41,304 nt of DNA, taken from Candidatus Micrarchaeota archaeon. GTDB lineage: Archaea; Micrarchaeota; Micrarchaeia; Anstonellales; Bilamarchaeaceae. Below the pieces are notes generated by a model, which ran no database searches, was not told where the DNA came from, and saw nothing but the letters and a program-made list of their open reading frames with translations. Both the position numbers and the translations under genes were made by a program. This document shows positions 1,408 through 41,222 of this stretch, piece by piece; positions within the stretch are counted from its first letter, which is position 1, and every line of letters begins with the position of its first letter. The stretch is from positions 1 through 41,304 of the forward strand of contig JBBSVO010000013.1 of assembly GCA_038046805.1 (NCBI GenBank), read 5' to 3'.

Positions 1408-1435
1408 ATCACTTACAATTCTTTTCGTCAGAGAA

Positions 1436-1442
1436 TTATAAA
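1436..1442. promoter_or_regulatory. TATA box between divergent genes
   Basis: TTATAAA about 23 nt before ATG 1465 (+) and about 29 nt before ATG 1407 (-). Confidence 0.45.
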
Positions 1443-1464
1443 CCTTTCTTCCGAATACCCATAT

Positions 1465-3795: not shown

Positions 3796-3818
3796 GGTTT
3801 GCACCTGTTTCCATATTC

Positions 3819-4958: not shown

Positions 4959-4978
4959 TTTATGTACCCCCCGCGTTG

Positions 4979-5374: not shown

Positions 5375-5422
5375 AAATATTATACGCCGTGCCGTATTTT
5401 AAACCATTATTTACATTATTAA

Positions 5423-6586: not shown

Positions 6587-6601
6587 CGGAGTCCTGGTAA
6601 A

Positions 6602-6976: not shown

Positions 6977-6994
6977 GTTGTTTGGGTAATCTCC

Positions 6995-10358: not shown

Positions 10359-10367
10359 GGTGAATCT

Positions 10368-11066
10368 ATGGTCAAACCAGATTACGATGCAAAAAAGGAA
10401 TGGACGAATACGTTTATTGCCCAGAGCGAAATGGCGTATCCCGCGGAATGGGTTATTCGCATCTTCAAGGGCAGTTATCCAAAGCTTAATCTGGACAAAC
10501 CTTCTTTTAATGGAAAGAAAATCCTTGATATCAGCTGCGGAGATGGGTGCAACATGCCTTTGCTTGCGCGTTGCGGATTTGAGGTTTACGGAACAGAAAT
10601 AACCTCCGGGATTGCAGCCAAGACGATGTCAAACCTTGCTGCGGTTGGAGTGCATTCCGATATCAGGGTTGGAACAAACGACAATCTTCCATTTGAAAGC
10701 GAATTTTTTGATTATCTTTTGTCTTGGAACGCGTGCTATTACATGGGCGCATTACGGGATTTCGGAAAGCATGTTTCGGAATATTCCCGTGTCATGAGAC
10801 AGGACGGTTATTTAGTGATGTCAATCCCGAAGAAAACCTCGTTTATATTCAATGGAAGCGACCCTGCGCCAGAGGCAGGTTACAGGATAATCAGGAACGA
10901 CCCTTACAAAATCAGAAACGGGGAATCCTTGCGTGTTTTCGAAGACGAAAAAGAAATAGAAGAAACGTTTTCATCTCATTTCAAGGATTTCATGTTCGGA
11001 GATATCCACGATGATTGCTTTGGAAGGGAATATCATTGGCATATTGTAGTGTGCAAGAGGAAATGA
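10368..11066 (+). CDS. Class I SAM-dependent methyltransferase
   Basis: KILDISCGDG motif I, VYGTE, LPFESEFFDYL; GGTGA SD. Confidence 0.85.
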   Translation: MVKPDYDAKKEWTNTFIAQSEMAYPAEWVIRIFKGSYPKLNLDKPSFNGKKILDISCGDGCNMPLLARCGFEVYGTEITSGIAAKTMSNLAAVGVHSDIRVGTNDNLPFESEFFDYLLSWNACYYMGALRDFGKHVSEYSRVMRQDGYLVMSIPKKTSFIFNGSDPAPEAGYRIIRNDPYKIRNGESLRVFEDEKEIEETFSSHFKDFMFGDIHDDCFGREYHWHIVVCKRK

Positions 11067-11067
11067 A

Positions 11068-12408: not shown

Positions 12409-12410
12409 AG

Positions 12411-13226
12411 TTATTCCACCTTATCTCCCTTTATCAGAAACGCAGGATTTTTCAAAAGCTCACTTTGTATAAGCGTGACAACGTCTTCTGCCTTCATGCA
12501 TAGAACACTTCCCTTTCCAAGCTTAACAACCTTTGCAAGTCCCAGTTCTTTTGCCTTTTTGTCAAATTTAGTGAAATCTGCCTCGTTGTTCGACTTTGCA
12601 AGGTCATAAACATAATGATAGTATGTTCGGTCTTCTTCAATGCCGTTTACTATCGCCTTTCCCGGAAATCCCTTATCATATCTATAGGGGACTGTGATCT
12701 TCTTTTCCACGTAATGAATTAATGTTGAACCGGAATCAAAATTAAAATTGCAGATTTTTCCTCCAGCGCTCAGAAACTTTTCCCAGAACGAGTTTGGCCC
12801 AAAAGAATGTTCCGGCGCATTTTTGGTGAATTGTTCCGCATTTTTTCCAATCGCGGCAATCGAAAAGTTCGCATCATCGGAACGAATCGCTTCTGGATCT
12901 TTCCTCACCATTTCGGAAAAAAGACCGCAGACACTCGGAGTGGTTTTTTTGTCGTAGGGCTGCTTTTTGCAAAACGAATACGAAAATGCCGGAACTACGA
13001 GTGTTCCGCCATCGTTTCCATGGTCTCCGCTTTCGCCTTTCCCGCTGCCTATTACTTCAAATATCGCTTCCTTGAAAACTCTATAATAATCGTCCTGGTT
13101 CTTCGCCCCTTCTAACCGTCCAAAGAATCCGATATTGCTATGGATGAAGATACTGTCCCCTTTTGTTATTCCAACTTCCAGAAGTGCCTGTATAATGTCA
13201 TTTTTTGAATAGTCGCTTCCAGTCAT
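12411..13226 (-). CDS. AAC(3)/YokD family acyltransferase
   Basis: GITKGDSIFIHS, GTLVVPAFSYSF, G.FSE..R, S.AAIG, STLIHYVE...VPYRY.K. Confidence 0.85.
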   Translation of the reverse strand: MTGSDYSKNDIIQALLEVGITKGDSIFIHSNIGFFGRLEGAKNQDDYYRVFKEAIFEVIGSGKGESGDHGNDGGTLVVPAFSYSFCKKQPYDKKTTPSVCGLFSEMVRKDPEAIRSDDANFSIAAIGKNAEQFTKNAPEHSFGPNSFWEKFLSAGGKICNFNFDSGSTLIHYVEKKITVPYRYDKGFPGKAIVNGIEEDRTYYHYVYDLAKSNNEADFTKFDKKAKELGLAKVVKLGKGSVLCMKAEDVVTLIQSELLKNPAFLIKGDKVE

Positions 13227-13487
13227 CTATTTTCCCCCCAGCTTCCTTTGTATTATTTCCGCAAGCCCGTTTATGGTTGAAAACTCGCGGTTCTGGAATT
13301 CCTCGTTTGAAAACCGTATTCCAAATTCGTCCTCAATATCACTTACAAAACTTATGAATTTCAGGGAGTCTATCCATCCTTTCTCAAAATAGCTGACTGA
13401 TACTCCATTCCCAATTTCATCCTTCTTCATATCTGTATTCTTTTCAAACCATGAAATGAGCCATAACTTTATTTGTTGAGGTTCCAT
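13227..13487 (-). CDS. Acyl/aminoacyl carrier protein
   Basis: 86 aa acidic protein with GWIDSL (Ppant Ser), IEDEFGIRF and STINGLAEII. Confidence 0.85.
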   Translation of the reverse strand: MEPQQIKLWLISWFEKNTDMKKDEIGNGVSVSYFEKGWIDSLKFISFVSDIEDEFGIRFSNEEFQNREFSTINGLAEIIQRKLGGK

Positions 13488-13507
13488 TAGTTCATCCCCG
13501 TATAAGT

Positions 13508-14179
13508 CTATTTGAACAGGATTGCTCTTGCCGTGGATCCGTCCGCTCCTTTTATTTTAAGCGGAAGGGCAGCAATCGTCCATCCTTCGTATTCGGTTAC
13601 ATTTTCAAGATTCAAATATTCAACAAGTGCGATTCCGTTGCGCAGGAAGATTTTATGTATCGGGGAATCTTCCTCAGTGCCAAGAATCTCCCCGCTTAGT
13701 TTTATTCTGCTGTCATCAGGGGAAGCAGTGTCCAGTCCGACCATTTCCACTCCGCGCGCAACCAGGATCTCTGCCGCCTCCTTCGTGAAATAAGGATACC
13801 CAACATAAAATTTTTTCGTGTTCCAGTGCTTGCTCCAACCAAATTTGAATATGACTCTTTTTCCTATCTTCAATTTTTCAAGCATCTCTGCAGTTACTGC
13901 GGAATTTTCCATTTTTCCGAGTTCGCTAAAATCAATAATTGTTACCTCCCCGACTAATTTCTCAAGTGAAACCTTGTCTATACTGTTTCCACCTTTTACA
14001 AAATGAAGCGGGGCATCAACCTGTGTTCCAGTGTGCGTTCCGAATGTTATCTTGCGTGTTTCTCTTCCCTCAACGTCATGTCTTCCCATCTGCGTTATCG
14101 AAACAACCGGATGCCATGGCGCGCCGAATGTTAGCATGCCCTCTTCAATAAGATATGTAAGGTCAATTATCTTTTTCAT
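13508..14179 (-). CDS. Cyclase / kynurenine formamidase family metal-dependent hydrolase
   Basis: IIDLT, HTGTQVDAPLH, GLDTASPD, HKIFL..G..LVEYL, ALPLKIKGADGS.ARA. ATG 14179 follows GGTGAG. Confidence 0.85.
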   Translation of the reverse strand: MKKIIDLTYLIEEGMLTFGAPWHPVVSITQMGRHDVEGRETRKITFGTHTGTQVDAPLHFVKGGNSIDKVSLEKLVGEVTIIDFSELGKMENSAVTAEMLEKLKIGKRVIFKFGWSKHWNTKKFYVGYPYFTKEAAEILVARGVEMVGLDTASPDDSRIKLSGEILGTEEDSPIHKIFLRNGIALVEYLNLENVTEYEGWTIAALPLKIKGADGSTARAILFK

Positions 14180-14196
14180 AATCTCACCATGGTTTT

Positions 14197-15186
14197 TCAC
14201 TTCTTCTGCTCTGATGCCTTCATCCATTCAATTGTTTTCCTTATTCCGCTTTCCAGGCTTGTTTTTGCCTCCCACCCAAGAAGTTTTTTTGCCTTTGAAC
14301 TATCGCAGAGAAGTTTCATTATCTCAGCCTGTGGGTGATGGTGCGGAACATGTTTTATTTTGGACTTGTTGCCAACTGTTTCATTTACTATTTGGGCAAG
14401 GTCGTTTATTGATACGTCCTTTCCAGTGCCTGCGTTTATTATTTCTCCTACTGCTCTGTCGTTTTTTACTGCCATTGAAATAAACTCCGCGCAGTCTTCC
14501 ACATAAAGTAAATCTCTTGTTTGCTTTCCCTCACCAAAAATGTTAAGGTCTTGTTCGTCCAGTGCTCGTTTTATGAAAATGTTCACCACGCCGCCTTCCA
14601 TATTTGTTTTTTGGAAAGGACCGTATATATTGAATGGCCGAAGTACGACTACCGGAAGTCCAATTCCCCTATAATACGAAAGTGCAAGCTCCTCTGCCGC
14701 CATTTTAGAGCCGGCATATGGGGACGCAGGTTTTGTTGAATGCGTTTCTGAAATCGCAGTTCCGGATGCTGTACCAGCCGTGTCATAAACCATGCATGTT
14801 CCAACGAGAATAAGTTTTGTTTTTCTGCTGCCTTTCTGAGATTTTCTGCATTCCTCAAGCACATTATATGTTCCGACAACGTTGTCTTTGAACGCCTTTT
14901 CAGGGAAATCCAAAGATTCCTGGACGTTTATCTGCGCTGCGCAATGAATACATACGTCAGGTGCGAATGATGCGAATACCTTTTCAAGTTCATTGACATT
15001 TGTTATGTCTCCTCCAACAAAAACGAATTTTGAGTTGTAACTTTTATTTTTCATAAATTCAATAATGTTTTCTTCGCTTCCATTTGAAAGATTATCAAAT
15101 GCAGTTACACTATCTCCTTCATCAAGAAATCTTTTGACAACCCATCTTCCGAGAAATCCGGCACCGCCGGTTACAAGAACGCGCAT
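14197..15186 (-). CDS. NAD-dependent nucleotide-sugar epimerase/dehydratase
   Basis: VLVTGGAGFLG, PYAGSK (YxxxK), RPFNIYGP, TRDLLYVED. Confidence 0.92.
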   Translation of the reverse strand: MRVLVTGGAGFLGRWVVKRFLDEGDSVTAFDNLSNGSEENIIEFMKNKSYNSKFVFVGGDITNVNELEKVFASFAPDVCIHCAAQINVQESLDFPEKAFKDNVVGTYNVLEECRKSQKGSRKTKLILVGTCMVYDTAGTASGTAISETHSTKPASPYAGSKMAAEELALSYYRGIGLPVVVLRPFNIYGPFQKTNMEGGVVNIFIKRALDEQDLNIFGEGKQTRDLLYVEDCAEFISMAVKNDRAVGEIINAGTGKDVSINDLAQIVNETVGNKSKIKHVPHHHPQAEIMKLLCDSSKAKKLLGWEAKTSLESGIRKTIEWMKASEQKK

Positions 15187-15228
15187 TCAAATCACTCGAT
15201 TATCCAATTTATCTGCTAAAAGCTTCTT

Positions 15229-16269
15229 TCACTTCAGGAATCCGGTTTCCACAAGAAGTTTTTTTATCTCATCCATTGTCATCATCTTTTCATCTGAGGA
15301 ACGATAATTCGCATGCTTTGCCGGCTTTGTATTGGAATAGCGGGTTGTGTCAATGGAAAACAGGTCCTTAAGCGCTGGCGGAATCAAAATGAACATTTCA
15401 TTTGCCTCAAGCGCGCTTAGTGCTTCCTCCTCAGTCATCAATTCCTCGTACATTTTTTCCCCTGGAATTGCGCCTATGATTTTTTTCTTTATTTCCGCCG
15501 GTTTATGTGCAAATTTTCCGGCAATCTCCGAAATCATCACGTCTGCCAAATCATCTATTCTAAGGACAGGCATCTTAAGCACGAATACCTCTCCACCCTG
15601 TGCAATTTCTGTTGCCTTGAAAAGAAGCTTGAGCGTATGTTTTAATGTCATAACAAATCTGGTCATTTTAGTGTCAGTTATTGTTACCGGTCCGCCCTTT
15701 GCAATCTGTTTTTTAAATAGCGGAACAACAGAACCTCGGGAACCGAAAACATTTCCGAATCTCACGCTTGCAAATACGCACCTTCTGGAACCTTTGTAAT
15801 AATTGGCCGCGGTGACAAGTTTTTCCCCAAGTAATTTGGTAGTTCCCATCACATTAGATGGATGGGCTGCCTTATCGCTGCTTGTAAATACGAACTTCTC
15901 AACGTTCGCGTCAAGTGCGGTATCAAGTACATTCTGAAGTCCTACCACGTTGGTTTTTACTGCCTCAAAAGAATTATACTCACACGCAAGAACATGTTTC
16001 ATCGCCGCGCAATGGAATACGATATCAACGCCTTCAAACGCGCGCTTCATTCTATCCTTGTCCCGCACGTCCCCTATAAGGTATCTTACTCTATTACCCT
16101 CATCCAGTTTCCTGAAGGCATGCGCCATTTCAAATTCGCGGGTTTCGTCTATATCTAGTACCCGGATTGCCTTCGGATTCATTGGAAGAAGTTCCTTTAC
16201 AATCTCTCTTCCAACCGAACCGGTTCCTCCTGTGACAAGAATCGTCTTTCCTTCAAATATATTTGCCAT
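15229..16269 (-). CDS. pseB: UDP-GlcNAc 4,6-dehydratase (PseB/FlaA1/CapD family)
   Basis: ILVTGGTGSVG, GDVRD, HCAAMKHV, TSSDKA, MGTTK, VRFGNVFGSRGSVVP, MTRF, GEKMYEEL. Confidence 0.8.
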   Translation of the reverse strand: MANIFEGKTILVTGGTGSVGREIVKELLPMNPKAIRVLDIDETREFEMAHAFRKLDEGNRVRYLIGDVRDKDRMKRAFEGVDIVFHCAAMKHVLACEYNSFEAVKTNVVGLQNVLDTALDANVEKFVFTSSDKAAHPSNVMGTTKLLGEKLVTAANYYKGSRRCVFASVRFGNVFGSRGSVVPLFKKQIAKGGPVTITDTKMTRFVMTLKHTLKLLFKATEIAQGGEVFVLKMPVLRIDDLADVMISEIAGKFAHKPAEIKKKIIGAIPGEKMYEELMTEEEALSALEANEMFILIPPALKDLFSIDTTRYSNTKPAKHANYRSSDEKMMTMDEIKKLLVETGFLK

Positions 16270-16291
16270 AAATAGCCCTCAGAATACACAC

Positions 16292-16377
16292 TAACAAGGT
16301 GAGGCGACCCCGATATAATCGGGGCGCTGGTGCCACTAATGGTCAAACATCTGTGTGGCACTCGTCTCACCTTGTTA
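16292..16377. other. Three-way-junction palindromic element upstream of the pseB-like operon
   Basis: A 16 bp outer stem (16292-16307 / 16362-16377) encloses hairpins CCCCGAT/ATCGGGG and GTGCCAC/GTGGCAC. Confidence 0.75.
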
Positions 16378-16416
16378 CACGATTGATTATAATTTCTACG
16401 CATAAATATAAAATCC

Positions 16417-17550
16417 ATGCACATGGCAGTGGCAACTACGGCGCTTGAAGCCCGGGGCGGGGCAGAACGGGTAGTCCTGAAAATAGCCGAGCATTTTAAT
16501 GCCACGGTCTTTACTACCAGATATTCTCCAGAATGTACATACGAGGCTTTTGGAGACCTTGATATTCGCATTCTTAAAAGCCCGCTTCAGAAGCTTCCGA
16601 TTGGAAAGCGACTTTCCACAGGAATAGCTGCCGGAAGCACGTTTTATACCGCGAATTTACAGGAATATGGGGATTTTGACATTGTCAATGCGCACCAGAG
16701 CCCTTCCGAATGGTTGCGGAACAAAAACATCCCTATGGTCTGGTATTGCCACAGTCCTAATCGCGAGGCTTTTGACTTATATGAATGGCGCATGCGCAGG
16801 CGTGATCCCCTAAGAAAACTTGCATTCTGGACTGCGATAAGGGCATTCAGGCATTTTGAATTTCAGGTGGTCCCAAAAATCGAGTATATTTTCACGAACA
16901 GCAAGAATAGCAAAGGCAGGATAAAAAAATATCTTAATCGCGATGCTGAAATACTACATCCAGGAATAGAAGTCAGTAAGTTCCGCAGCGGGGAATATGG
17001 AAACTATTTCCTGTATCCAGGCAGAATAACTCCTGAAAAAGACATTGAATTTTCCATTTCCGCCTTTAAGAAACTGTGCGAACGCGTGAAAGGCCACAGG
17101 CTTATCATCGCAGGCGCGTTGTCCGACCGACCGGAACACATCGCATATTTTGATAAACTGAGAAAACTGGCAGCCGGTCTTCCGGTCGAATTCCAGACAA
17201 ACCTGAGCGAAGATGAGCTTATGGACCTTTATGCAGGCTCGCTTGCGGTTTTCTACACTCCAATCAACGAGGATTTTGGTCTTATTCCGCCAGAGGCAAT
17301 GGCAGCCGAAAAGCCATGTATTGCAAAGAATGAGGGCGGGCCGCGCGAAACGGTGATTGACGGAGTAGATGGTTTCCTTGTAAATAGTCCTGAGGAAATG
17401 GCGGACAGGATGGAATTTTTCATCCGCAATCCCGCGCTTGCAGAACAATTCGGAAAAAAAGGAAAAAAGAAGGTTGAGCGCGATTTCACATGGGAACATT
17501 TCCTGAAGAGATTCGAGGAAAAAGCAAAAGAGGTAATAAAAAATCCGTGA
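16417..17550 (+). CDS. GT4 family glycosyltransferase
   Basis: RGGAERV, YCHSP, NS, GRITPEK, EDFGLIPPEAMAA (EX7E), GGPRETV.DG..GFL. Confidence 0.92.
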   Translation: MHMAVATTALEARGGAERVVLKIAEHFNATVFTTRYSPECTYEAFGDLDIRILKSPLQKLPIGKRLSTGIAAGSTFYTANLQEYGDFDIVNAHQSPSEWLRNKNIPMVWYCHSPNREAFDLYEWRMRRRDPLRKLAFWTAIRAFRHFEFQVVPKIEYIFTNSKNSKGRIKKYLNRDAEILHPGIEVSKFRSGEYGNYFLYPGRITPEKDIEFSISAFKKLCERVKGHRLIIAGALSDRPEHIAYFDKLRKLAAGLPVEFQTNLSEDELMDLYAGSLAVFYTPINEDFGLIPPEAMAAEKPCIAKNEGGPRETVIDGVDGFLVNSPEEMADRMEFFIRNPALAEQFGKKGKKKVERDFTWEHFLKRFEEKAKEVIKNP

Positions 17551-17604
17551 AAATTTGCGGATTTTCCCAGCTTTTTCATAACTTGATAAAGAACGTGATG
17601 AAAA

Positions 17605-19320
17605 ATGCAGAAACAGAAGCAAAAAAGTGAAGGCGCACCCGATGCCGCTGCACAAAGCCGCCACGACTCCGCGGACGAAAACCTCTCCTTTATTGCAAAA
17701 GGTTCGTTCTGGCAGCTTTCATCCTCTATTATTTCAAAGCTTATTGCGTTCGTTTACGTGGTTTATCTTGCCCGTGTCCTTCCACAGGAGGAAGTAGGTT
17801 TATTCTACCTTGCATTGAGTTTCGTTAGCGTCATATCCATTTTTGCGGACCTTGGAATTTCCATGACTGCGCCAAGGTATATTCCATATTTTATGGAAAA
17901 AGGGAAGCCAGGAGAAGTCAGAAGGCTGGTAAAATACACTGCGTTTGTAGGCATCTGTTCCACACTGTTGTTTTCTCTCGCAGTTTTGTTCCTTTCGGGA
18001 AACATCGCGGATAGTTTCAAAAACCCGCGTCTTCAGCAGCCTCTTGCTATAATGGCATTTTACATAATAATAGTTGAATTATACAACATCGCGCAATCAC
18101 TGTTCGTTGGTTTCAAGAAAATAAAGGAAAATGCGATGATGGCGAATTTTCAATCATTGCTCAAATTGGTCTTTGCAGTTGTATTCATTGGCTTCCTTGG
18201 AAACAGTGCGGTAATCAATTCCTATGCATTTTTGGCATCGTTTCTTGTGCCAGCATTGTTCGCAGCCCCGTTTCTTTTGAAATTTGTATCCAGTGTTGAG
18301 CATGGCGGAGTGGAAGGGAGCAACAGACAGTTTCTTGCGGAAATCCTCCCATTTGGTTTTATGCTTGGAATTGTTTCCACTTTTAATTTTGTTCTCGCAT
18401 ATGCGGATCGGTTGATGGTCGGTTATTTTATAACCGGAGCTGAGGGAGAAAGAGCAGTTGCAATATACAGCGTTGCCACGGGACTTGCAGGTCTTCTTTC
18501 CGTTGCCGCGGTTGCAATTGCAACAACATTTCTTCCTGTTGTTTCCAGCATTCATGGCAGGGATGAAAAAGACCACGCTTCGCTTGGAAAAAATGTAGGG
18601 GTAACTACAAAATGGATGCTGTTTTTCACGGTTCCGTTTCTTTTGTTGTTCCTTGTCTTTCCTGAACAGATTCTTGAGGTCATCTATGGTGCGCAGTATT
18701 CGTCCGGCGCAAACGTGCTTGCGCTTACCGCGCTAGGATCTCTTATCCTTTTGATTACGCATATGCATCGGGTGGTTTTGGCAGGGATGAGACTGGTAGG
18801 GATTGAATTGAAAATGGCTGCCGTCACAGTACTAATCAATATCGCGCTTAATCTCTATCTTATTCCTGTATATGGGATAGATGGAGCCGCTCTCGCAACT
18901 CTTATCTCATTTGTAGCGATGACATTGATGACAAATGCTTTTTCCATACAGTCATTTTCGTTCGGATTTCCACCAGATATACTAAAACACCTTGCCACAA
19001 TAGCCGTGGCGGTTGGCATTATGCTGGTCCTGAAGGAGCCAATCCTCGCAGCGAGCGTTGGAATTCTTTCAATCAAGGAACTTTTTGCTTCCACTGATTT
19101 TGTTTCTGTAATCCTTTCAAAATTCGTCCGCCTTGCATTCATCGCAGTCCTTGGCTGCATCGGAATGGCATTTTATGTTGCGGGTTTAATGTTCTTTAAG
19201 CTTTTCAGACAATATGATATAGATGTGATGAAGGAGTTCCTAAAGAGAGTGGGGGTATCTGATCGGTTTATCTGTCCGATCGAAAGCATACTTTTATGGG
19301 GAACCTCGCGAGGGGAATAA
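17605..19320 (+). CDS. Wzx/MurJ-like (MOP) oligosaccharide flippase
   Basis: About 14 hydrophobic segments, YLARVL...EVG, ADLGI, DRLMVG, LIPVYGIDGAALAT. Confidence 0.9.
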   Translation: MQKQKQKSEGAPDAAAQSRHDSADENLSFIAKGSFWQLSSSIISKLIAFVYVVYLARVLPQEEVGLFYLALSFVSVISIFADLGISMTAPRYIPYFMEKGKPGEVRRLVKYTAFVGICSTLLFSLAVLFLSGNIADSFKNPRLQQPLAIMAFYIIIVELYNIAQSLFVGFKKIKENAMMANFQSLLKLVFAVVFIGFLGNSAVINSYAFLASFLVPALFAAPFLLKFVSSVEHGGVEGSNRQFLAEILPFGFMLGIVSTFNFVLAYADRLMVGYFITGAEGERAVAIYSVATGLAGLLSVAAVAIATTFLPVVSSIHGRDEKDHASLGKNVGVTTKWMLFFTVPFLLLFLVFPEQILEVIYGAQYSSGANVLALTALGSLILLITHMHRVVLAGMRLVGIELKMAAVTVLINIALNLYLIPVYGIDGAALATLISFVAMTLMTNAFSIQSFSFGFPPDILKHLATIAVAVGIMLVLKEPILAASVGILSIKELFASTDFVSVILSKFVRLAFIAVLGCIGMAFYVAGLMFFKLFRQYDIDVMKEFLKRVGVSDRFICPIESILLWGTSRGE

Positions 19321-30643: not shown

Positions 30644-33600
30644 ATGTCAGATGATTCTAAACCAGATGGAAAAGGCGCAACCGCGCTTGATGCGTTTGAT
30701 ACGTTAGATCTTACACCAAAGAAATTAATAACTCAATTAAGGTTTTCAGAATCTGGCGATCTTCTTCGTGTAACTTTTACAAGAGAAGACGGTTCGTCAG
30801 GTGATTTTCAATTCAATTCTTCTGAGATCGTCAAGATGGTAAGCGGAGACACGTCTAAAGTAGCGGATATGCTTGCAAGCGATTATCCAGATATTTTTTC
30901 CCGTGAGTTCGCAACTCGTCTTCTTGATGGAGTTTCCGCTTCTTCTGAATTTCAGGCTCATGCGGCTACGCTTCAGCAAGCAGTTCAGGAACCATTGCAA
31001 AACACAGGACTCGGGACTCAAGACGCGAAACCCGGAACGCAAGACGCGGAACCATCATTAGGCGGCACACAATCCTTTGCGAATTTGGTAAACATGGTTG
31101 CGCCTCCTGGTGCAGCTCACCTTTCTGGAGATTCAGGAATCCCTGATCCGAGCCGATTGGTTGATTTAAGTGCAGTCCCGCGCGGAAGCGGAGCGGATGA
31201 ATCTTCAGCATTTCTTGTTCAACCAGATGGCACGAGCACCCCGCCCAGGGTCGTCCCACCCCCTGTTCCTCCAATCTCTTCGGAAAAAAGGGGAAAACCC
31301 GGTGAAACCGTTGTTCTTCCAGATGCACGTGAAGATGACGAAACCGTTGTTCTTGAAGGGGATGACATTAAGATGGAATCCGAGCCAGTAGCTCCAGTGG
31401 CAGCAGTCGGAGAACATTTAGGGCCGGTACAAACCCGCGGAGATATCTCACTTGTTTCAGATGTTCCGGAACCGTTACAGTTTGCTGGAGAAACCCAACC
31501 TTCTGTAGTTGTTCCAGAAATGGAATCGCCGACACAAGTTATTCGTACAGCACCTGAACCATTGCACCCGGAAGGCCGTGGAGATCGTGATGAGGATGTA
31601 ACTCAGGAAATTCCAGCAGATCAAAAGCCAAAACCCGTAACTCCGGCATTGGTTTTTCCGCCTTCAGAAGGAAGTGAATCTGCACAAATTGATTCATCTG
31701 CGCAAGCATCTGTTGGCGAGCCAACTACACAAGCTGCCTCAGTACAACCCGCTCCACAAGATGCTCCGCAATCTTCTGATGCAACACCTCAAGATGCAAA
31801 ACCAATTCCTGTTGTTAGTATCGGTCGTAGTGGTCATGTTCTCGTACTTCTAAATGATAAATCCGAAGTGATTCTTGGTGGCCGTTCGATTCTTCGCGTT
31901 CTCAACGCAAATAAAAGTGGCGGACGGGATGAAGCAGCACGCATACTGTCAGCAGAATATCCGGGCATTCAATCCGATCTCGCAGGGCTTATTCTTGACA
32001 AGGTGTGCGCCACGGATTTTGTCAGTAATGCGATTGATTTTCTGTCTTCTTCCAGGCAATCTGCATCAGACCAAGCATCTTCTGCACATACAAAACCAAT
32101 CCCTCCTGTTAGCTTAAGTATTCGTTACAATCTTTTAGTGATTGGCCATGATAGTCTTGAAATAGTTCTTGATCGCGCAGTTGTTACTCGCATTCTTCTT
32201 GCAAATAAAAGAGGCGGAAGATCAGAGGCAGAACGTGTATTGGAGCATAGACCTATGGGTATCACATCCGATGATGATAAAATTATTCTTGATCAGTTGT
32301 GTAGTCCAGGTTTTGCCAGTACGTTTAGACAGTTATTATCTTCCCAAAATCAGCCAGCATCAGTCCAACCATCCACACCAACACAACCGCCCGCGCAACC
32401 ATCGGTTTCGGCACCAGCGCAACCAGCAGTAAGCACTCCACAACCGTCGCCTCCGGTTCCAACAAAAGATGAGTTAAATGCAATGTATCTTGCTGCGGCA
32501 GGTAATGGAGAGGTAGATGAAATAAAACGTGCAATCGCACTTGGTGCGGACAAAGAGGCAAAAGATTCCGAGAAGAAAACCGCGTTAATGCGTGCGGTTG
32601 CAGGTCTTCATCTTCCTGCGGTTCAGTGTCTTATCGAAGAGATTAAAGTTAATCTGTATACGAAAGGTGTTTTTGGGTTTACCGTAATTGACAATCTGCA
32701 AGCTCTCGGGGATTCTGATGAAGCAAAAGCTGTTAAGACGTATATCCAAGAAATTCATGATAATGGCATGAGACGGGTTCATGATGCCCTAGTTGCCAAA
32801 TCTGCTCAAGATGCTATCACATCTGTTCTCCCAGCACCAAGAAAAAGTGCCAAACCCTTTCTCTCCAATTTGCCGTGGGGCTGGTTGATCGGTGCAACAG
32901 TGGTCACATCTCTTTCAATCGTGACTGCTGCTTCAAGTTCATTCCGCAACTCTGTTTTTGATTTTGCAAAGGGGGTTGCATCCGCAGCAGGGGTTATTTT
33001 CACAGATGGGATTAAAGAAACCAAAGATGGCGGATTGCGTTTCACAGGATTTTCTTCAGAGAATAACTGGTGGAAGGAAGGAAAGTACAAACTTTCAAAA
33101 GAAGATGCACTCGACGTTGCAAATCAGGTTCTTATTGGGCGTATGGATTATGCAAGGGATATTTTAACGACACGATTTGACATTTCCAATTCGCTCGCAG
33201 ATGATATGCTCGAGGAAATGAATATTTATGATGCTTCACGAATTGCAAAAAAGCCATTCTTACAGTTAGCGCATGGCCGCTATCAATTCACGAATGTATA
33301 CATAAATGATGTTTTTCCGAGTTGTTCGATTTCCAAAGACGGAATGAAAAAAGTTGTCAATGCATATATTGCGCAAGGTGAGGGGGCCGCGCTTGATATC
33401 CTTAACGACGAGCTTTTCGCTACTAATCGCAATGGCAGGTTAGTCAGTTCATGTTCTTCTTGGGCAGGAGTTACTTTCTTTTCCAAGAGTACTCTCACAG
33501 ATATGATGCGCGCAATTCTGTTATCATCAATTGGTCGGCCTTTTATTCATGAAGCTGATATGGCGTTTCAAGCACAAAAAGCTGCGGACGCGGAAGCGAA

Positions 33601-34057
33601 AAAAACCGCAGATGAAGTTGCAAAACTAGTGGAACAAGAGAGATTACGCAAAGAAATGGAAGCGAAAGATGCCGCTGCATTAAAAGCTGCAGAAGAAGCC
33701 AAAAACATGCGGGATCTTTTAGAATCTGCGATTACCCCGCCGGTTTTGAGTTCTGAAGACGAAGAGCATATTCGTTCTGTTGCAGCTGAAAAGCGGGCAG
33801 CAGAAGAAAAGGCGGCAAAACAAGAAGCAGAACGTGCGGAAAAACAAAAACAAGAACAAGCGAAAAAAGCTGCCCAAGAATCTGCAGCAAAAAAGAAAGC
33901 AGAAGATGATCGCAAATCACGTGAAGCTGCTGCAAAGCGCGCGATGTCAAAAGGAGCAGGTGCAGAAACCAGGCGCGTCTTAAGTGACTGCGAACGTAGC
34001 TGCAAATATGGTGGCGGTACTTCGATGCAACGGGCATGTATCAGCGGTTGCCGATAA
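30644..34057 (+). CDS. Large membrane-anchored protein: repeated ~80 aa module, Pro-rich linkers, ankyrin repeats, one TM helix, A/K/E-rich coiled coil, C-terminal 4-Cys motif
   Basis: 1137 aa; GAGGTG SD; ankyrin-like AAAGNGEVDEIKRAIALGADKEAKDSEKKTALMRAV; TM WGWLIGATVVTSLSIVTAA; ends CERSC...CISGCR. Confidence 0.8.
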   Translation: MSDDSKPDGKGATALDAFDTLDLTPKKLITQLRFSESGDLLRVTFTREDGSSGDFQFNSSEIVKMVSGDTSKVADMLASDYPDIFSREFATRLLDGVSASSEFQAHAATLQQAVQEPLQNTGLGTQDAKPGTQDAEPSLGGTQSFANLVNMVAPPGAAHLSGDSGIPDPSRLVDLSAVPRGSGADESSAFLVQPDGTSTPPRVVPPPVPPISSEKRGKPGETVVLPDAREDDETVVLEGDDIKMESEPVAPVAAVGEHLGPVQTRGDISLVSDVPEPLQFAGETQPSVVVPEMESPTQVIRTAPEPLHPEGRGDRDEDVTQEIPADQKPKPVTPALVFPPSEGSESAQIDSSAQASVGEPTTQAASVQPAPQDAPQSSDATPQDAKPIPVVSIGRSGHVLVLLNDKSEVILGGRSILRVLNANKSGGRDEAARILSAEYPGIQSDLAGLILDKVCATDFVSNAIDFLSSSRQSASDQASSAHTKPIPPVSLSIRYNLLVIGHDSLEIVLDRAVVTRILLANKRGGRSEAERVLEHRPMGITSDDDKIILDQLCSPGFASTFRQLLSSQNQPASVQPSTPTQPPAQPSVSAPAQPAVSTPQPSPPVPTKDELNAMYLAAAGNGEVDEIKRAIALGADKEAKDSEKKTALMRAVAGLHLPAVQCLIEEIKVNLYTKGVFGFTVIDNLQALGDSDEAKAVKTYIQEIHDNGMRRVHDALVAKSAQDAITSVLPAPRKSAKPFLSNLPWGWLIGATVVTSLSIVTAASSSFRNSVFDFAKGVASAAGVIFTDGIKETKDGGLRFTGFSSENNWWKEGKYKLSKEDALDVANQVLIGRMDYARDILTTRFDISNSLADDMLEEMNIYDASRIAKKPFLQLAHGRYQFTNVYINDVFPSCSISKDGMKKVVNAYIAQGEGAALDILNDELFATNRNGRLVSSCSSWAGVTFFSKSTLTDMMRAILLSSIGRPFIHEADMAFQAQKAADAEAKKTADEVAKLVEQERLRKEMEAKDAAALKAAEEAKNMRDLLESAITPPVLSSEDEEHIRSVAAEKRAAEEKAAKQEAERAEKQKQEQAKKAAQESAAKKKAEDDRKSREAAAKRAMSKGAGAETRRVLSDCERSCKYGGGTSMQRACISGCR

Positions 34058-34861: not shown

Positions 34862-35851
34862 ATGAACCGCTTAATAAGAACCGCTTTATGCGCTTCCGCT
34901 TTTGTCATAGCCTCTAATATAATTAGTCCATCTCAGGTTCACGCAAAACCGTTTCCACCAGGAGTTTCGTTTTTTCTCCCGCTTGCCGAAATCCCGCTTT
35001 CATCTCAGCAAAAGCTTCGAGCATTAGAAGAGAAGATAAATGCAATTGCTGAAGGCAGACTTAAGCTTAAGTTAAAAGATGATGTGCAATTACAGCTTCC
35101 GGATATTCCAACTCTGCGCGGGGTAATCATAAATAGAATACCTGCAGGTCCTCTAAAAACTAACTTATTTGCTCTATTGAGTGATGTTAACCAGGCAGGA
35201 GATGCCAATCCCGTGGGCGTTGCATTTGTTTCAGCATATCTTTTTTATGCAAATAATCTAAACCCATTTCTTGCAGCTTATTGGTCAGACCAGAATAATT
35301 TTGTTGAAGAAACATCTGAAGGAAGAGTAACAGGACCTTCCTACGATAAATCTGGAAACTTGGCAGGTTTTGTATGGTCTACTCAAGCGCCACCACAAAC
35401 ACCATCTTCCGAGCCAAAGCTAACAGACTCTGGGCGTTTGCCGGATGCTCAGAATCCTCAAGGTGAAACAAGGGGAAAAAGCCTGGCTGACAAGTTTTTT
35501 GATGCCCAATCTGCAAAAAAACCCGTAGTTAAGAAAGTGGCTAAGGAGGGAACAGTCATATTTCGAGGAGAACAAATTAAAGTAAACCAGGATTATTTAC
35601 CCATAGATGAAAAAGGTCTTGAATCGGTTAAAACTAAACTCTTCTGGCTGATTGAACTCAATCCTGGTGATCTGCCCGAGTATATACGTGTGCTTTCATT
35701 AGACGAACTTCGAGTATTCAATTCGGTAATCTCCACTCTGATCAGTAACCATAGCAATCCTATTCTCGAAAAAAGTGATGTTCGTAGAATGCTTCGAGAG
35801 AGGTTTGAGGCCCTGCAGGGAAACGAACCTACAATTCCGTTCGAAAAATAA
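34862..35851 (+). CDS. Secreted hypothetical protein, paralogous to the N-terminus of the downstream giant protein
   Basis: Signal peptide MNRLIRTALCASAFVIASNIISPSQVHA. Confidence 0.75.
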   Translation: MNRLIRTALCASAFVIASNIISPSQVHAKPFPPGVSFFLPLAEIPLSSQQKLRALEEKINAIAEGRLKLKLKDDVQLQLPDIPTLRGVIINRIPAGPLKTNLFALLSDVNQAGDANPVGVAFVSAYLFYANNLNPFLAAYWSDQNNFVEETSEGRVTGPSYDKSGNLAGFVWSTQAPPQTPSSEPKLTDSGRLPDAQNPQGETRGKSLADKFFDAQSAKKPVVKKVAKEGTVIFRGEQIKVNQDYLPIDEKGLESVKTKLFWLIELNPGDLPEYIRVLSLDELRVFNSVISTLISNHSNPILEKSDVRRMLRERFEALQGNEPTIPFEK

Positions 35852-35912: not shown

Positions 35913-38900
35913 ATGCCTTCTTACAGATTCAGAAGAATAGCCGTAGCCATAGCTACGGCGTTAATATTCAATTCCGTCCAGCCACCTGTCCTAGCAGAGG
36001 GTTTAAATACCTTAGGCGGTAGATTATATAATATTGGTGGTTTAATGAGGCCAGCAGTGGTTGGTAGACTCGCAGGAATTCTCCCGATTGGTCAAGTTCC
36101 GACAGAAGCCGAGCAGAGGCTCCGCGAGATTGAGGATACTCTAAAAAAGCTGGCAGACGGGACGCTTAAGCTGAAGGTAAAGGAAGGTTTTAAAGACAAG
36201 TTTGAAAGTCTTCCGTCACAAAGACTAAACAACCTACTTGGTATTATGCCTGACAATCAAACAATCCAAAACATAAAAAAACTAATCTCTGAAAATAACC
36301 GCGCCGGAATCGTATTCGGTTTTGCCTATTGTTTTCTAGTATCACATATGCGAAACGCCAATCAAAACGCACGTAACTTCGCTTTTGATTACTCTAATAT
36401 GGAAAATTATGAAGTTGTGACAAGCCAGCTTTCGGCTGTTCCTTCTCCAATCCCATCCCCAATTGAATATCTCCCTGCAATGCCCACACGAGAAGAACGA
36501 CCTCCAGTGGTAGAATCAACCACCACAAGTGATGAGCGCGTTGAAGAGGCGAAAAAAGAACTTAAGAGTAAGATCTCTCAAATCAAAACTATTCTTTCCG
36601 GAAGAGAACTTCTTAGCGATGATACTTCAAAACAGCTTAAGACATGGGAAGATCGAATAGGGAAGATTCCGGGTAAGGGCGCAGATGCTGAGAACCAAAT
36701 CCGTCGTTTATATCTGGAAATCCCGGAAGTAAGTGAGGTTCGAAGCCTTGCTAATATCTCAGCAAAAGTAATTGCAGCTGCAAATCTTGCTTTTTACGAT
36801 GAGACGGGCACGAATATAATGCTTGATAAACTTGGGAAGCAGTTTGATACGCTGGCAGCATCTTATACAGCTTTTAAGTCATCCACTAACTTCCTGACTG
36901 GTGTAATACTCAATTCCATGAAAAAGGACCATCTGTTTTTTGAATTTTCCAAAGTCAGCGGGCTAGATACGAATTCACTTCCTGGCATTGCATTTGCTAT
37001 AAAATCCTATGTAACTGGCAGGGCCGAGGTTCGTTTTGCATTCCAAAACGCGTTGAAATCCGCATCAAAAGACGAAGCAATTTCTGGTCTTCAACAGGCT
37101 ATTTCAAGCTGCGTGGCTAGGTTCGGTTCAATCGCTCCGTTGGACGAACTTGTAGATTTACGGGCTTTGGGTGCATCAAAGAACGATACCGTGGAGTATC
37201 TCGTAGGATGGATAAATAATAATTACGGAGACATTTCATATGGGCGTAACGCGTTCTTTAGCATCGGCGGTGCGCAGTTAAGCTCGCTTTCCGAATCTGA
37301 CAGTGAAACTGCTAACGCGGCCTGGGGCTCAAATCCGCTTGTCGGGGAAGGCGCGGTTACAGGTGCATATGCAGAGCGCCTTGATGAATTTTACGGAAAA
37401 GCAACGATGATTGATTATTTTTATCTTGGAAAAGCCGTAACTAAAATAATTCCTTCGGGTCTCGGAAGCCCTGTGGTTTATACAGCGCTTCTCGGCACAA
37501 CTATTTCCATAGATCAATTTGACCCGTATCTGTTGCCAACGTTTGTCAATGTCCTTTTACCGGAAATGGTTCGCAATTCCTATGACTCCGACGAACTGGA
37601 GCAGCTTCTTATTTCGTTGGATGGGTTCTTTTACAATATGAGAAATTCTCTCGGCGAATTCAATGTTGTTCCAAAAGAAGTCCGTGAGAACATGCAGGGT
37701 ATAATGAAGGACGCGGCAAAGGAAATCTCAGACACACGTTTAAACATCACCAAAGGAAATTTAATGGAGGAATGGCAAAAGCCGGCTGGACTCACCGGGC
37801 ATCGCGACCCAAATTACTATCTTACAAGACCACAGTTTGAAGGCTATGAAACAAAATGGTTCCCTTCACAAGGTCCGGCAAAGCCGCATCTCCTGGACCT
37901 CGACCCCGGACTGACCGGCGTAGCATACGATCCGTTTGGTTTGACTCTTCAGATGCCAATGCGGGCTAGAGGTGCCTCCAAGCTCTACGGATATCTAGAT
38001 AGCCTTCTTAATCCGCAATATGCGTTTGCAGAGTTCAGAGAAATCCCAGCGTCTTATCGTTTGCGTGTGTCATCTTTCCAGGACGTGGTGTCCTCATTGA
38101 ATAAAATGCAGGGGCGCATGCTGGCATATCTTTCAAGCCACCCCTATTCCGACGAGGTTCTTGAAGCGTTTGCACAATTCACTGCGTATGGACGGACGCC
38201 TTTACCAGATGCCGGCACCACAGATAAATTTGAGCATGTTGGTGCGCTTGGAGGCGGAGGTGTTGCCACGCCAGAAGGTGCAGCTCAGGTTCGCGGGAGG
38301 ATGGAAAAAATCGGAACCACCACTAGATATGAAGTTACGGAAAGCGCTTCAAAGGTTCCTGCCCCTCTTATTGGCAATAATATTCATTCCATGAATATGC
38401 GATTTCAGGGAAGGACCGAGCAGGATATGAAGAACTGGGAGGAAAACCAGCAGGCTTATACTGCACTTGAGCTCATGAAAAGAGGCGGTGCGAATGCGAT
38501 AATGACCTGGGAATACCAGTCGGTTGTTCCAGAAAAGTCAACGGATTACGAAAAAGAAAGATATGAAGTCGCATTGCATGTTTTGGAAGAAGATGGAACA
38601 GTAACTCGTTTTGCCCTGAAGTACGATGATTATGTGAAAATCCTCAATTATTCGTTCGGAGAAAGAGATGCGCAAAAATATATTGCAAGTGCCAAATACC
38701 TCACGGAAATGAATGATTTGAACGGTGCCGCGGTTGGCTTTACGCTTGATGACGTCGGCGTGCTCGCCCTCAGAAATCACATGTATCGCTATTTTCAGGA
38801 TAAAAAAATTGCAACACAAAATCTGGAGGTTGTCGGAGTCCAGCTCGGAAAATCTGCCGGGAAATTATTTGCAACCTATAAAGATACCATTCTAATGCCA

Positions 38901-40427
38901 CGTGTGTTTGCCGGGGAACAGCCAACAGAGGAGACCGTGCTTGCAAAAGGAGTTGAGGCAAAATGGGTGAAGCTTCCGCCAACCCAAAACGACTGGGGTG
39001 CGCTCGCAAAGGCATTCGTGTCAAAGTCTGATATAGAAACATGGGATGGAATCTATGGGACGTATGGGGTACGAGGAATCTATGAGTCACCTGCTTCTGA
39101 CAAAGTCCAGGATGCATGGGGCGGATCGGCGTATCGCAGAAGTGTTGTTCCACTCTTTAGAATGGTGCAACTCTCTTCCGAAGCGGATCAATACGCGCAA
39201 AGAGTTACGAATTATCTTGTAGACGCATACCACTGGGAAAAAGAAAAGGCAAACAAATATGGGTGGCTGGTTGCCGCTCAATACCTTCGTTCAGCTGTTG
39301 ATTCGGTTGTTGGCGGCGAGTCAAAGGACGAAAAAGCAAGAAACTTTGGAAGACTGGTGTTCCTCGGATGGACCGCTGCGCACAGCGGACAGCTTGGACT
39401 TGAAAAATTGCCTGGCTGGGCACGAATTGACGAGGAAATGAAAAATTTTGAACGTGAGCTCGTCTTAATGCCATATAATTCCGAGGCTATAGTGACTAAT
39501 TACGTGGAAAGAATAAATCAGCTTGCCAAGTCAGACCTTTACAGGTTAGCATTAAACTATGGTTATGATAATCGTGTTCTTTTGATGAATTATGTTGAGA
39601 ACTATGATGATTACTATGCAGGAAGAGGAGAGAATCTTGCTTTCCTGACAAATTCGCTTTATTTCGGAGCGACGTGGCAGATATACTCCTTCATGAATAC
39701 ATATGCACAAACGAATTCCTTCCTTGCTTATGGTCTTGCGACCATTGGTTACGTTGATGTTTTCAGGGCAATGGCCGGCCCGGTTTTCACAAAGGATGAA
39801 GTGGTTGGTGCAGCTGGCCAGTTGCTGGTAAAGATAAAGCTCGGGGAAGTTCCAATCATAATCGGTGGCATGGGTATGAAAGTAGATATGAAACACGTGG
39901 AACAAACACGTTTACAACTGGTTCTCAGTTCCCAACTTGTTGATGCTGCGATTACACACAGGACAATAACTTCGGTTTATGTCAAGTTTGATTGGACAAA
40001 GGGCATCGCATATCTTATTGATAAGACGGAATATGAAGATATGTACGGCCAGGCAGGAGTTACTGTGGAAAAACAAGACCTGAAGAATTATAGCTCGGCA
40101 TTTGATGCTGCTGTTAAGGTCGGTCAGGTAAGCGTGGCAAGATTTTCAAAATATGCTACCGGAGCTGGCGAGGAAGTGGTTACCTCAACTTCTACAGAGC
40201 AAACATCTGGTACCGGAGGAGTAGTTTATACTCTTGGCACCCCCGTAGGAGACTTTTCCATAGGTGCTTATGGTGGCAGAGGCGTTTATGGATATCTTTA
40301 TCCGTTTGGGGCGTCTGTTGCTTCGGATCTTCAACGTGTCATTACGCCAAATTGGCTTAGCATAGATCCAAAGCTTTATGAGAGATGGTTTGGCGGAGCA
40401 TTTGTGACTTATACCACAACATTCTGA
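35913..40427 (+). CDS. Giant secreted protein (~1504 aa) with a helical N-terminal half and a beta-strand-rich, beta-barrel-like C-terminal half
   Basis: Start moved to ATG 35913, which gives the signal peptide MPSYRFRRIAVAIATALIFNSVQPPVLA; ends WFGGAFVTYTTTF. Confidence 0.8.
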   Translation: MPSYRFRRIAVAIATALIFNSVQPPVLAEGLNTLGGRLYNIGGLMRPAVVGRLAGILPIGQVPTEAEQRLREIEDTLKKLADGTLKLKVKEGFKDKFESLPSQRLNNLLGIMPDNQTIQNIKKLISENNRAGIVFGFAYCFLVSHMRNANQNARNFAFDYSNMENYEVVTSQLSAVPSPIPSPIEYLPAMPTREERPPVVESTTTSDERVEEAKKELKSKISQIKTILSGRELLSDDTSKQLKTWEDRIGKIPGKGADAENQIRRLYLEIPEVSEVRSLANISAKVIAAANLAFYDETGTNIMLDKLGKQFDTLAASYTAFKSSTNFLTGVILNSMKKDHLFFEFSKVSGLDTNSLPGIAFAIKSYVTGRAEVRFAFQNALKSASKDEAISGLQQAISSCVARFGSIAPLDELVDLRALGASKNDTVEYLVGWINNNYGDISYGRNAFFSIGGAQLSSLSESDSETANAAWGSNPLVGEGAVTGAYAERLDEFYGKATMIDYFYLGKAVTKIIPSGLGSPVVYTALLGTTISIDQFDPYLLPTFVNVLLPEMVRNSYDSDELEQLLISLDGFFYNMRNSLGEFNVVPKEVRENMQGIMKDAAKEISDTRLNITKGNLMEEWQKPAGLTGHRDPNYYLTRPQFEGYETKWFPSQGPAKPHLLDLDPGLTGVAYDPFGLTLQMPMRARGASKLYGYLDSLLNPQYAFAEFREIPASYRLRVSSFQDVVSSLNKMQGRMLAYLSSHPYSDEVLEAFAQFTAYGRTPLPDAGTTDKFEHVGALGGGGVATPEGAAQVRGRMEKIGTTTRYEVTESASKVPAPLIGNNIHSMNMRFQGRTEQDMKNWEENQQAYTALELMKRGGANAIMTWEYQSVVPEKSTDYEKERYEVALHVLEEDGTVTRFALKYDDYVKILNYSFGERDAQKYIASAKYLTEMNDLNGAAVGFTLDDVGVLALRNHMYRYFQDKKIATQNLEVVGVQLGKSAGKLFATYKDTILMPRVFAGEQPTEETVLAKGVEAKWVKLPPTQNDWGALAKAFVSKSDIETWDGIYGTYGVRGIYESPASDKVQDAWGGSAYRRSVVPLFRMVQLSSEADQYAQRVTNYLVDAYHWEKEKANKYGWLVAAQYLRSAVDSVVGGESKDEKARNFGRLVFLGWTAAHSGQLGLEKLPGWARIDEEMKNFERELVLMPYNSEAIVTNYVERINQLAKSDLYRLALNYGYDNRVLLMNYVENYDDYYAGRGENLAFLTNSLYFGATWQIYSFMNTYAQTNSFLAYGLATIGYVDVFRAMAGPVFTKDEVVGAAGQLLVKIKLGEVPIIIGGMGMKVDMKHVEQTRLQLVLSSQLVDAAITHRTITSVYVKFDWTKGIAYLIDKTEYEDMYGQAGVTVEKQDLKNYSSAFDAAVKVGQVSVARFSKYATGAGEEVVTSTSTEQTSGTGGVVYTLGTPVGDFSIGAYGGRGVYGYLYPFGASVASDLQRVITPNWLSIDPKLYERWFGGAFVTYTTTF

Positions 40428-40460: not shown

Positions 40461-40836
40461 ATGACTATCATCAAGTCGGTAAGAGTACCTGGCTTTTTGA
40501 GCCAGGGTGAATTGCCGACCGACTTGATGAGCGTTCTTCAACTGCGAAGCAGTTGGAGAGACGGCGAACTCTGTTCGCTGGATTTTCGAATGGGCAGCAT
40601 ACCCCGCGCTTGCGCGGGGTTCCGAGCATCAGCGAGGACTGCCCTTCGAAAAATCTGATATGAAACCACGAAAATAATGCAGTCATCTTGAGCACCAAGT
40701 CTCTGAAATCCGCACTCGTGGTTTGATATGTAGTGAGACGCGAAAGTTCATGATTGTCCGACGGCTCGGACAATATGCATCTTTTTGCTTTAAGCAAACA
40801 GATTGTCGCAAAACTTTCGTGGATCGCTATAGTTAT
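40461..40836 (+). ncRNA. Candidate large structured non-coding RNA or palindromic element of unknown family
   Basis: More than 12 helices, a terminal closing stem (40461-40468 / 40829-40836), G-U wobbles favouring the + strand, and AT-rich TATA-like sequence upstream. Confidence 0.55.
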
Positions 40837-41222
40837 TTTCCCCTCATTTCCAGTTTTGGTGGCATAAATGGTGACGCCATATTAAGTGCCCGTGAGATAA
40901 ATACTCCATTTAATCCCGCAGTCATATTTATTGCATTGAGCAACGGACCCATAATTTGAGGTAGAATCGACTTGTTTTTCTTCCACCCGTCCATCACGCT
41001 TTTTATTATAGTTAATTTTTCCCCGACTGCCGCGGTGCCGAATATTTTCAGATATCCTAACTTTGGATGATAAGTTGTTTCGTAGGTGAATTTAAATTTC
41101 AATTCATCTCCTGAGAACCCAACATCATTTATTCTTATATTCACTTCTATATTCTGCGGAATTCCGATACCTTCTTTCTTTGCTTCGGTTCCTTCAAGGA
41201 GTATTGCGCGTATTTCAGTCAT
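40833..41222 (-). CDS. Conserved-looking archaeal hypothetical protein (possible SecB-like fold)
   Basis: ATG 41222 after GGTGAT; four beta-strand-like segments followed by helices ending ISRALNMASPFMPP. Confidence 0.65.
   Translation of the reverse strand: MTEIRAILLEGTEAKKEGIGIPQNIEVNIRINDVGFSGDELKFKFTYETTYHPKLGYLKIFGTAAVGEKLTIIKSVMDGWKKNKSILPQIMGPLLNAINMTAGLNGVFISRALNMASPFMPPKLEMRGK

Follow-up and report, generated by a model that had tools for sequence, protein, structure and literature searches.

A giant exported protein, here called P0001, was found to be encoded on a contig of Candidatus Micrarchaeota archaeon, a very small archaeon of symbiotic type (assembly GCA_038046805.1, contig JBBSVO010000013.1), of which a stretch of 41,304 nucleotides, the window, was analysed. 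P0001 belongs to a real, conserved archaeal family that lies outside every family tested, and its C-terminal half is predicted to form a sheet of 37 consecutive strands. The reading preferred here, with a probability of about one half, is that P0001 folds as one chain into a transmembrane beta-barrel with about 36–37 strands, similar in size to SprA and provided with a helical plug, which would act as a gated conduit in the archaeon's own envelope and would be inserted without the machinery for beta-barrel assembly (BAM). The positions of all features are collected in Table 1.

The gene was single-copy and began with ATG at position 35913, encoding 1504 amino acids; the same start was seen in a genome of the same genus, where the N-terminus was 60% identical to that of P0001. 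Residues 1–28 were basic, then hydrophobic, and ended in ...VLA, which by eye reads as a signal peptide, and homologs likewise began with basic and hydrophobic leaders. Hydropathy (19-residue window) peaked at 1.68 at residue 9 and did not exceed 1.43 beyond residue 200; therefore, there should be no transmembrane helix after the leader. An initial annotation, made from the sequence alone, had described the same combination of N-terminal signal peptide and missing C-terminal helix. The eight motifs it had quoted were all present within residues 1050–1504 (39060–40424) and the chain did end in phenylalanine. The strand-rich region that it had described was real, except that it began slightly earlier, at residue 751 (38163), and was not beta throughout, since helices occurred at residues 836–858, 1168–1205 and 1458–1490. 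Residues 751–1504 contained 9.4% glycine, 12.3% aromatic residues and no cysteine, compared with 8.0% aromatic residues in positions 1–474. Neither P0001 nor its homologs matched any Pfam or NCBIfam family, and no SLH domain was detected in P0001 by the Pfam scan. Sequons for N-glycosylation were not enriched among 22 homologs (203 observed against 233 expected), and therefore gave no information on topology.

The fold was predicted twice with AlphaFold2. Model 1 (residues 475–1504, alignment of 72 sequences) had a predicted local distance difference test score (pLDDT) of 77.1 and a predicted template modelling score (pTM) of 0.75, and comprised a helical domain followed by 35 consecutive strands. 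Model 2 (residues 672–1504, 60 sequences, alignment register corrected; pLDDT = 76.4, pTM = 0.62) comprised 37 consecutive strands between residues 751 and 1502, of which strands 24–36 mostly had pLDDT of 81–95. The count of 35 strands, along with an apparent small C-terminal barrel in model 1, was discarded on account of a register shift in the alignment at residues 1264–1310, an error that coincides with the low-confidence stretch of that model. In both cases the predicted strands were of membrane-spanning length and formed a consecutive meander, and neither model showed the soluble sandwich or propeller fold that the initial annotation had named as the contrary outcome. Hydrophobic alternation averaged 0.42 across the strands, compared with 0.32 ± 0.02 in 2000 within-strand shuffles (maximum 0.40); it was strong in 20 of 37 strands, and strands 1–3 were polar. 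Turns of six residues or fewer made up 15 of 18 on the C-terminal side and 10 of 18 on the other, where most of the long loops were also found.

When compared with 48,161 representative chains using VIA-align, outer-membrane or organellar barrels accounted for 47 of the best 50 matches to model 1 and for all of the best 50 to model 2, the latter with Z scores of 9.9–13.9 and root-mean-square deviations (rmsd) of 4.4–15.4 Å. MtrB, with 26 strands, aligned continuously over strands 17–37 of model 2 (328 residues, Z = 12.7, rmsd = 6.8), while whole 16-stranded porins aligned with strands 21–37 (rmsd 7–8) and the plugs of FhuA and BtuB superposed on the P0001 linker with rmsd of 4.5–4.8 across 260–280 residues. 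Foldseek ranked MOMP, SprA, LptD and MtrB highest, the best whole-length template modelling (TM) score being that of the 30-stranded SlpA (0.32). No feature match to the barrel in the ESM Atlas reached 0.9 (lipid A deacylase 0.85, DUF6850 0.84), so that these are leads only. The models fit one continuous sheet larger than any structural match, with the linker placed on its concave side near the last strands. From the meander of 35–37 strands and the identity of its structural neighbours, a very large membrane beta-barrel is the most likely fold of the family, as had been proposed from the sequence.

The contig itself was shown to be archaeal by RecJ (385.7 bits, cut-off 360) and GlmM (468.7 bits, cut-off 439) of the archaeal marker families, and the genome also encodes PolD and an AglB-like protein; the diderm-bacterial origin that the initial annotation had allowed for was not borne out. 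Homologs of P0001, termed type I, were found in Micrarchaeota only. A six-sequence profile matched 44 of 99 genomes in the family of the P0001 genome, five of these through a paralog only. A larger profile matched 41 of 401 genomes sampled across the phylum, that is, 37 of 75 from the same family, three from two other families and the P0001 genome itself; with this profile, type I was found in none of the 94 and none of the 83 genomes of the two largest other families. Among 1.84 billion representatives there were 63 matches, of which 61 align to type I and two were repeat proteins that were dropped. A single-sequence protein search returned only P0001's own cluster, and a profile search of a word-indexed library added two type II proteins (see below). 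The named homologs were Candidatus Micrarchaeota, one of them a sister-type protein from Bilamarchaeaceae that was about 40% identical to members in the P0001 genome's family, from which the same family name is inferred for the P0001 genome, and syntenic type I homologs occurred in about 40 archaeal genomes. Intact members ranged from 1374 to about 3100 amino acids, mostly through variation in the N-region. A terminal F, W or Y on an alternating strand was present in 51 of 66 complete C-termini, which are kin rather than independent observations and include two of sister type II, compared with 8.4% of 501 open reading frames (ORFs) in the genome; hydrophobic residues occupied positions -1, -3, -7, -9 and -11.

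Two further types were recognised, both comprising giant exported proteins with C-termini that read as barrel-like, and each adjoining a gene for a SecB-shaped protein. Type II was homologous to type I through about strand 29 (hhalign 99.6%) and had a different C-terminal end; type III showed no relationship to type I in the profile comparison (0.8%), and F, W or Y was the last residue in 12 of 16 members. In the phylum sample, type II matched 21 and type III 17 of the 401 genomes, and the three types together were present in 52 of 75 family genomes, counted over three genome lists. Some genomes had two barrel types in tandem. A possible fourth type was represented by exported proteins of 1160–1200 amino acids with alternating C-terminal strands, situated near SecB-shaped genes (L153:11522-15136, L154:11181-14657); these matched none of the three profiles. 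In four loci (L152 in G001, L083 in G081, L144 in G004 and L086 in G070) the barrel gene was broken by a stop or frameshift, through either assembly error or pseudogene formation.

The SecB-shaped gene beside P0001 encodes 129 amino acids and lies on the opposite strand. A homolog was present in 98 of 99 family genomes, usually in at least two copies; the second copy in the P0001 genome sits beside another gene, which we take to encode an Hsp20-like protein. Of 40 type I loci, 31 had a SecB-shaped gene no more than 3 kb away, and contig ends truncated several of the remainder. In a prospective test of 20 loci around SecB-shaped copies, drawn from 18 genomes with no type I match, a type II or III gene was present in 17, compared with none of six control loci from single-copy genomes. 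Linkage was also recorded for 21 of 22 type II and 16 of 16 type III genes, although these counts are partly circular because both types turned up through loci fetched around the SecB-shaped gene. A four-copy model of the protein scored 0.81, against 0.01 for the best control (pLDDT of at least 86; 87% contact agreement). The mark that it passed was attained by 20 of 30 solved pairs and by 1 of 23 single chains; this result may stem from likeness to solved SecB. The predicted homotetramer pairs two dimers, with strand 1 and a helix at the interface, an arrangement that is also that of SecB. The ESM Atlas lead was DUF1149 (0.88), a family that we take to have a SecB-like fold. To our knowledge, archaea lack SecA. 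SecB has been linked to the export of outer-membrane proteins (PMC3581621), and an archaeal SecB homolog at 18% identity has been reported (PMC4361572).

Several results weigh against a barrel in the archaeon's own envelope. Neither barrel closure nor the direction of the hydrophobic face was seen in the models, alternation was weak in 17 of the 37 strands, and most homologs insert about 300 amino acids between strands 27 and 28, on the side of the short turns. In the gap-corrected analysis of covariation only 8 of 36 neighbouring strand pairs exceeded the 95th percentile, which is too weak to speak on closure; a first result of 24 of 36 pairs had been inflated by shared gaps and was dropped. 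The predicted count of 37 strands is odd and, since odd counts in bacterial barrel models are reported to be mostly errors (10.64898/2026.03.07.710327), 36 strands plus one internal strand are equally plausible. High Foldseek ranks also went to LPD-3, EMC1 and ApoB, which are sheets but not barrels, and every barrel match had a high rmsd and a TM score below 0.45, so that none counts as a family match. Three sequence tests for SecB identity of the 129-residue protein were negative (hhalign probabilities of 0.1% and 0.4%, no PF02556 match), and the label 'SecB-like' is therefore structural. Omp85 was found in none of the 99 family genomes, among which 35 had a completeness of 90% or more, in a search (PF01103, E = 0.1) that was positive for 7 of 14 controls and that a remote homolog could escape. 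A crude screen of 985 ORFs revealed no second barrel-like protein, unlike any known diderm; it returned 15 signal-bearing proteins with an aromatic end, of which P0001 was the richest in amphipathic segments. The genome also contains an S-layer protein gene. The double membrane of the Archaeal Richmond Mine Acidophilic Nanoorganisms (ARMAN), invoked when the barrel was first suggested, proved a weak argument. Imaging conflicts among Micrarchaeota: two membranes were imaged in ARMAN (PMC4243693) and in ARM-1 (PMC8784108), whereas M. harzensis was shown to have one membrane and an S-layer (10.1101/2021.04.28.441871). The S-layer gene, the Omp85 result and the failure to find type I in the two largest other families also weigh against it.

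From the export signal, fold, distribution and linkage obtained computationally above, the chaperoning, insertion route, gating and cargo of P0001 might be envisaged as follows. A dedicated SecB-like tetramer would hold the chain of 1500–3000 residues unfolded in the cytoplasm, as gene linkage and the predicted tetramer suggest, and Sec would presumably export it by means of the signal peptide. The C-terminal half might then enter one of the membranes of the archaeon itself, which could be a second membrane or a membrane patch or, less probably, the cytoplasmic membrane. With no recognisable Omp85, the barrel would either insert itself or depend on an insertase that reads the terminal aromatic strand; BamA and SonA barrels have been reported to self-insert into liposomes (PMC13018214). 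Judging by the model superpositions, residues 475–750 would plug the lumen, while the long, variable N-region may serve as a tether or adhesin. The product would be a gated conduit, wide enough for macromolecules to pass, where the archaeon touches a partner cell. After weighing the Omp85 search, the ORF screen, the S-layer gene, the imaging and the reports of self-insertion, this conduit in the archaeon's own envelope was preferred to the three alternatives that follow.

The strongest alternative, although an unlikely one, is that the archaeon sends the same barrel into a partner cell's membrane, for instance a diderm outer membrane by way of the partner's BAM and the terminal aromatic signal, where it would form a feeding or injection pore. 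Types I and III keep a beta-signal-like end and no Omp85 of their own was found; an S-layer gene is present; there are only one or two barrels per genome with a patchy spread (52 of 75 family genomes over three types); and GDSL hydrolase genes stand beside many homologs, though not in the window. However, BAM is known from textbooks to act from the periplasmic side, meaning that the chain must first cross the host outer membrane. The carrier genomes have no known host, and a terminal aromatic residue can be purely structural.

The join between strands 27 and 28 bears on a different arrangement, in which a plugged barrel of about 27 strands would be followed by a separate, 10-stranded C-terminal barrel, as tandem barrels or in the manner of an autotransporter. 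The large insertion in homologs falls exactly here, the homology of type II ends at about strand 29 (hhalign 99.6%), and pTM falls to 0.62 without the plug. In P0001, however, these two strands are linked by a turn of 2 residues, and MtrB, porins and FimD align continuously past them in the corrected model. Twelve-stranded autotransporter barrels did match the last 190 residues of model 1 (rmsd about 5–6), but this came from the misaligned stretch, where pLDDT was below 50, and no barrel of 8–10 strands was among the best 50 matches. Two separate barrels are accordingly thought distinctly unlikely.

Ranking below both, and improbable in our estimate, is an open, curved sheet with a hydrophobic groove that is not inserted into a membrane, and that would carry partner-cell lipids in the manner of bridge-like lipid-transfer proteins or lipoproteins. 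Besides the lack of visible closure, several strands of P0001 are hydrophobic on both faces, and LPD-3 (E = 1.5e-4 and 1.7e-3) and ApoB100 were among the upper Foldseek matches. Yet neither protein occurs among the best 50 VIA-align matches and their rmsd is 35–60 Å; moreover, barrels are marked by a terminal aromatic strand, which is conserved here, and by short turns confined to one side. That the P0001 gene comes from the outer membrane repertoire of a bacterium and that its contig is chimeric or wrongly binned, as its otherwise bacterial or organellar fold might imply, is effectively refuted by synteny, its neighbours being common to dozens of genomes, and is further opposed by the archaeal RecJ and GlmM, the Micrarchaeota origin of named homologs and a flat G+C content of 41–46%.

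Around the P0001 locus, the 364-bp insertion that separates it from the SecB-shaped gene has TA at both ends and was skipped by a contig from a public RNA run. Incomplete copies of it occur at some ten further sites of the genome; it had no match in Rfam and is probably a non-autonomous mobile element. The RNA run held 25% of words, and its 16 short contigs (depth 2–4) covered the P0001 gene and its neighbours alike; it is therefore no proof of transcription. The 1137-residue orphan gene was kept upstream in the same-genus genome. In many genomes, barrel genes of each of the three types had immediately upstream of them genes for proteins with a GDSL/SGNH hydrolase domain and a further large orphan; these are absent from the window. 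A peptidoglycan-binding motif suspected in neighbouring genes had no Pfam support. A large surface-glycan cluster, labelled by inspection only, lies within the first half of the window.

Table 1. Features of the P0001 locus and examples of related loci. Positions are those of the window unless a locus is named.
Feature	Position	Strand	Basis or remark
P0001, whole gene (1504 aa): signal peptide, variable N-region, helical plug-like domain, giant predicted beta-barrel	35913..40427	+	ORF call
Sec-type signal peptide, residues 1–28	35913..35996	+	judged by eye from sequence; hydropathy maximum at residue 9
Variable N-terminal region, residues 29–474, looks helical	35997..37334	+	about 430 to 1550 aa among relatives
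Conserved helical domain and linker, residues 475–750	37335..38162	+	superposes on TonB-dependent receptor plugs and VDAC/Tom40 N-helix
37 consecutive predicted beta-strands, residues 751–1502	38163..40418	+	model 2
Conserved helical hairpin loop, residues 1168–1205, joining strands 22 and 23	39414..39527	+	model 2 and alignment
Last strand with terminal Phe, beta-signal-like	40386..40424	+	sequence
Insertion of 364 bp between P0001 and SecB-shaped genes	40465..40830	.	absent from strain in public RNA run
SecB-shaped protein (129 aa), extra paralog travelling with barrel genes, predicted homotetramer	40833..41222	-	linkage counts and tetramer model
Exported protein (329 aa), partial paralog of P0001 N-terminus	34862..35851	+	27% identity over 116 aa, E 6e-11
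Orphan (1137 aa): duplicated domains, Pro/Gln-rich linkers, ankyrin repeats, central hydrophobic segment, Cys-rich tail	30644-34057	+	
Glycan cluster: nonulosonic-acid-type synthase, aminotransferases, epimerases, acyl carrier protein and adenylation enzyme, flippase	418-19320		
Type II loci	L055, L057, L065, L125, L127, L130-L132		
Type III loci	L063, L064, L133-L137, L139, L143, L147, L148		
GDSL/SGNH hydrolase and large-orphan examples	L013:15704-18382, L062:1-1986, L143:2389-4539, L147:15215-17410		

Transmembrane beta-barrels, and the Omp85 insertases that go with them, typify diderm bacteria, mitochondria and plastids. In the open literature, supplements and subscription papers apart, no description was found of a beta-barrel, outer membrane, porin or giant-protein family of this type in Micrarchaeota or DPANN archaea. 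The accessible parts of a study of 163 Micrarchaeota genomes (PMC12892359) never mention a barrel or outer membrane, those of an archaeal fold survey (PMC13607799) mention neither the outer membrane nor Micrarchaeota, and a possible PopA relative in Altiarchaeales is mentioned in passing (PMC12228718). It is suggested, tentatively, that a Micrarchaeota lineage has a beta-barrel biology of its own, with at least three giant types and private SecB-like chaperones, in which P0001 would be the largest single-chain barrel described (37 strands, perhaps with a VDAC-like parallel closure), inserted independently of BAM, either into an outer membrane of the archaeon or into a membrane of its host, as a feeding or secretion conduit. 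A conserved archaeal family of predicted barrels the size of SprA, in genomes where Omp85 was not found, brings two questions within reach of testing: do some Micrarchaeota possess a second membrane, and by what means do DPANN symbionts make a wide channel to a partner? It also suggests a client for the unexplained SecB-like proteins of archaea.

Among known systems, neither P0001 nor its homologs belong by sequence profile (Pfam, NCBIfam) to SprA, SlpA/OmpM, TonB-dependent receptors, LptD, MtrB or VDAC/Tom40, and superposition on these gave partial matches only (VIA-align rmsd 4–15 Å). The 129-residue neighbour is similar in size to SecB (about 130–150 residues) while having no detectable sequence similarity to it. 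VDAC and Tom40 have an odd number of strands and are closed by a parallel pair; they differ from P0001 in having 19 strands, in being inserted by Sam50 and in lacking sequence similarity, but have an N-terminal helix in the lumen, as predicted for P0001, and stood in the top VIA-align rows (Z = 13.9, rmsd = 10.2). TonB-dependent receptors (22 strands), MtrB and LptD (both 26 strands) had Z scores of 10–15 and share with P0001 a C-terminal aromatic residue and, as predicted for it, an N-terminal plug inside a large barrel; P0001 differs in its helical plug and far greater number of strands, and superposes partially, with no family match. The SlpA/OmpM tethers of Deinococcus (8ae1, 7zgx, 8agd) resemble the predicted form of P0001 in combining a large barrel, of 30 strands, with a long N-terminal region and coexistence with an S-layer, whereas P0001 has about seven strands more, no detected SLH domain and no sequence similarity to them. 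SprA, with 36 strands, has been given as the largest known barrel (10.64898/2026.03.07.710327). As the translocon of type 9 secretion, SprA/Sov (PDB 6h3i, 8gl8) belongs to Bacteroidota and works with BAM and partner proteins, whereas P0001 is archaeal and carries its putative plug within the same chain; identity is 7–9%, with an rmsd of 26 Å and a TM score of 0.12, but both are giant single chains, and SprA was matched by model 1 in Foldseek with E = 5e-5.

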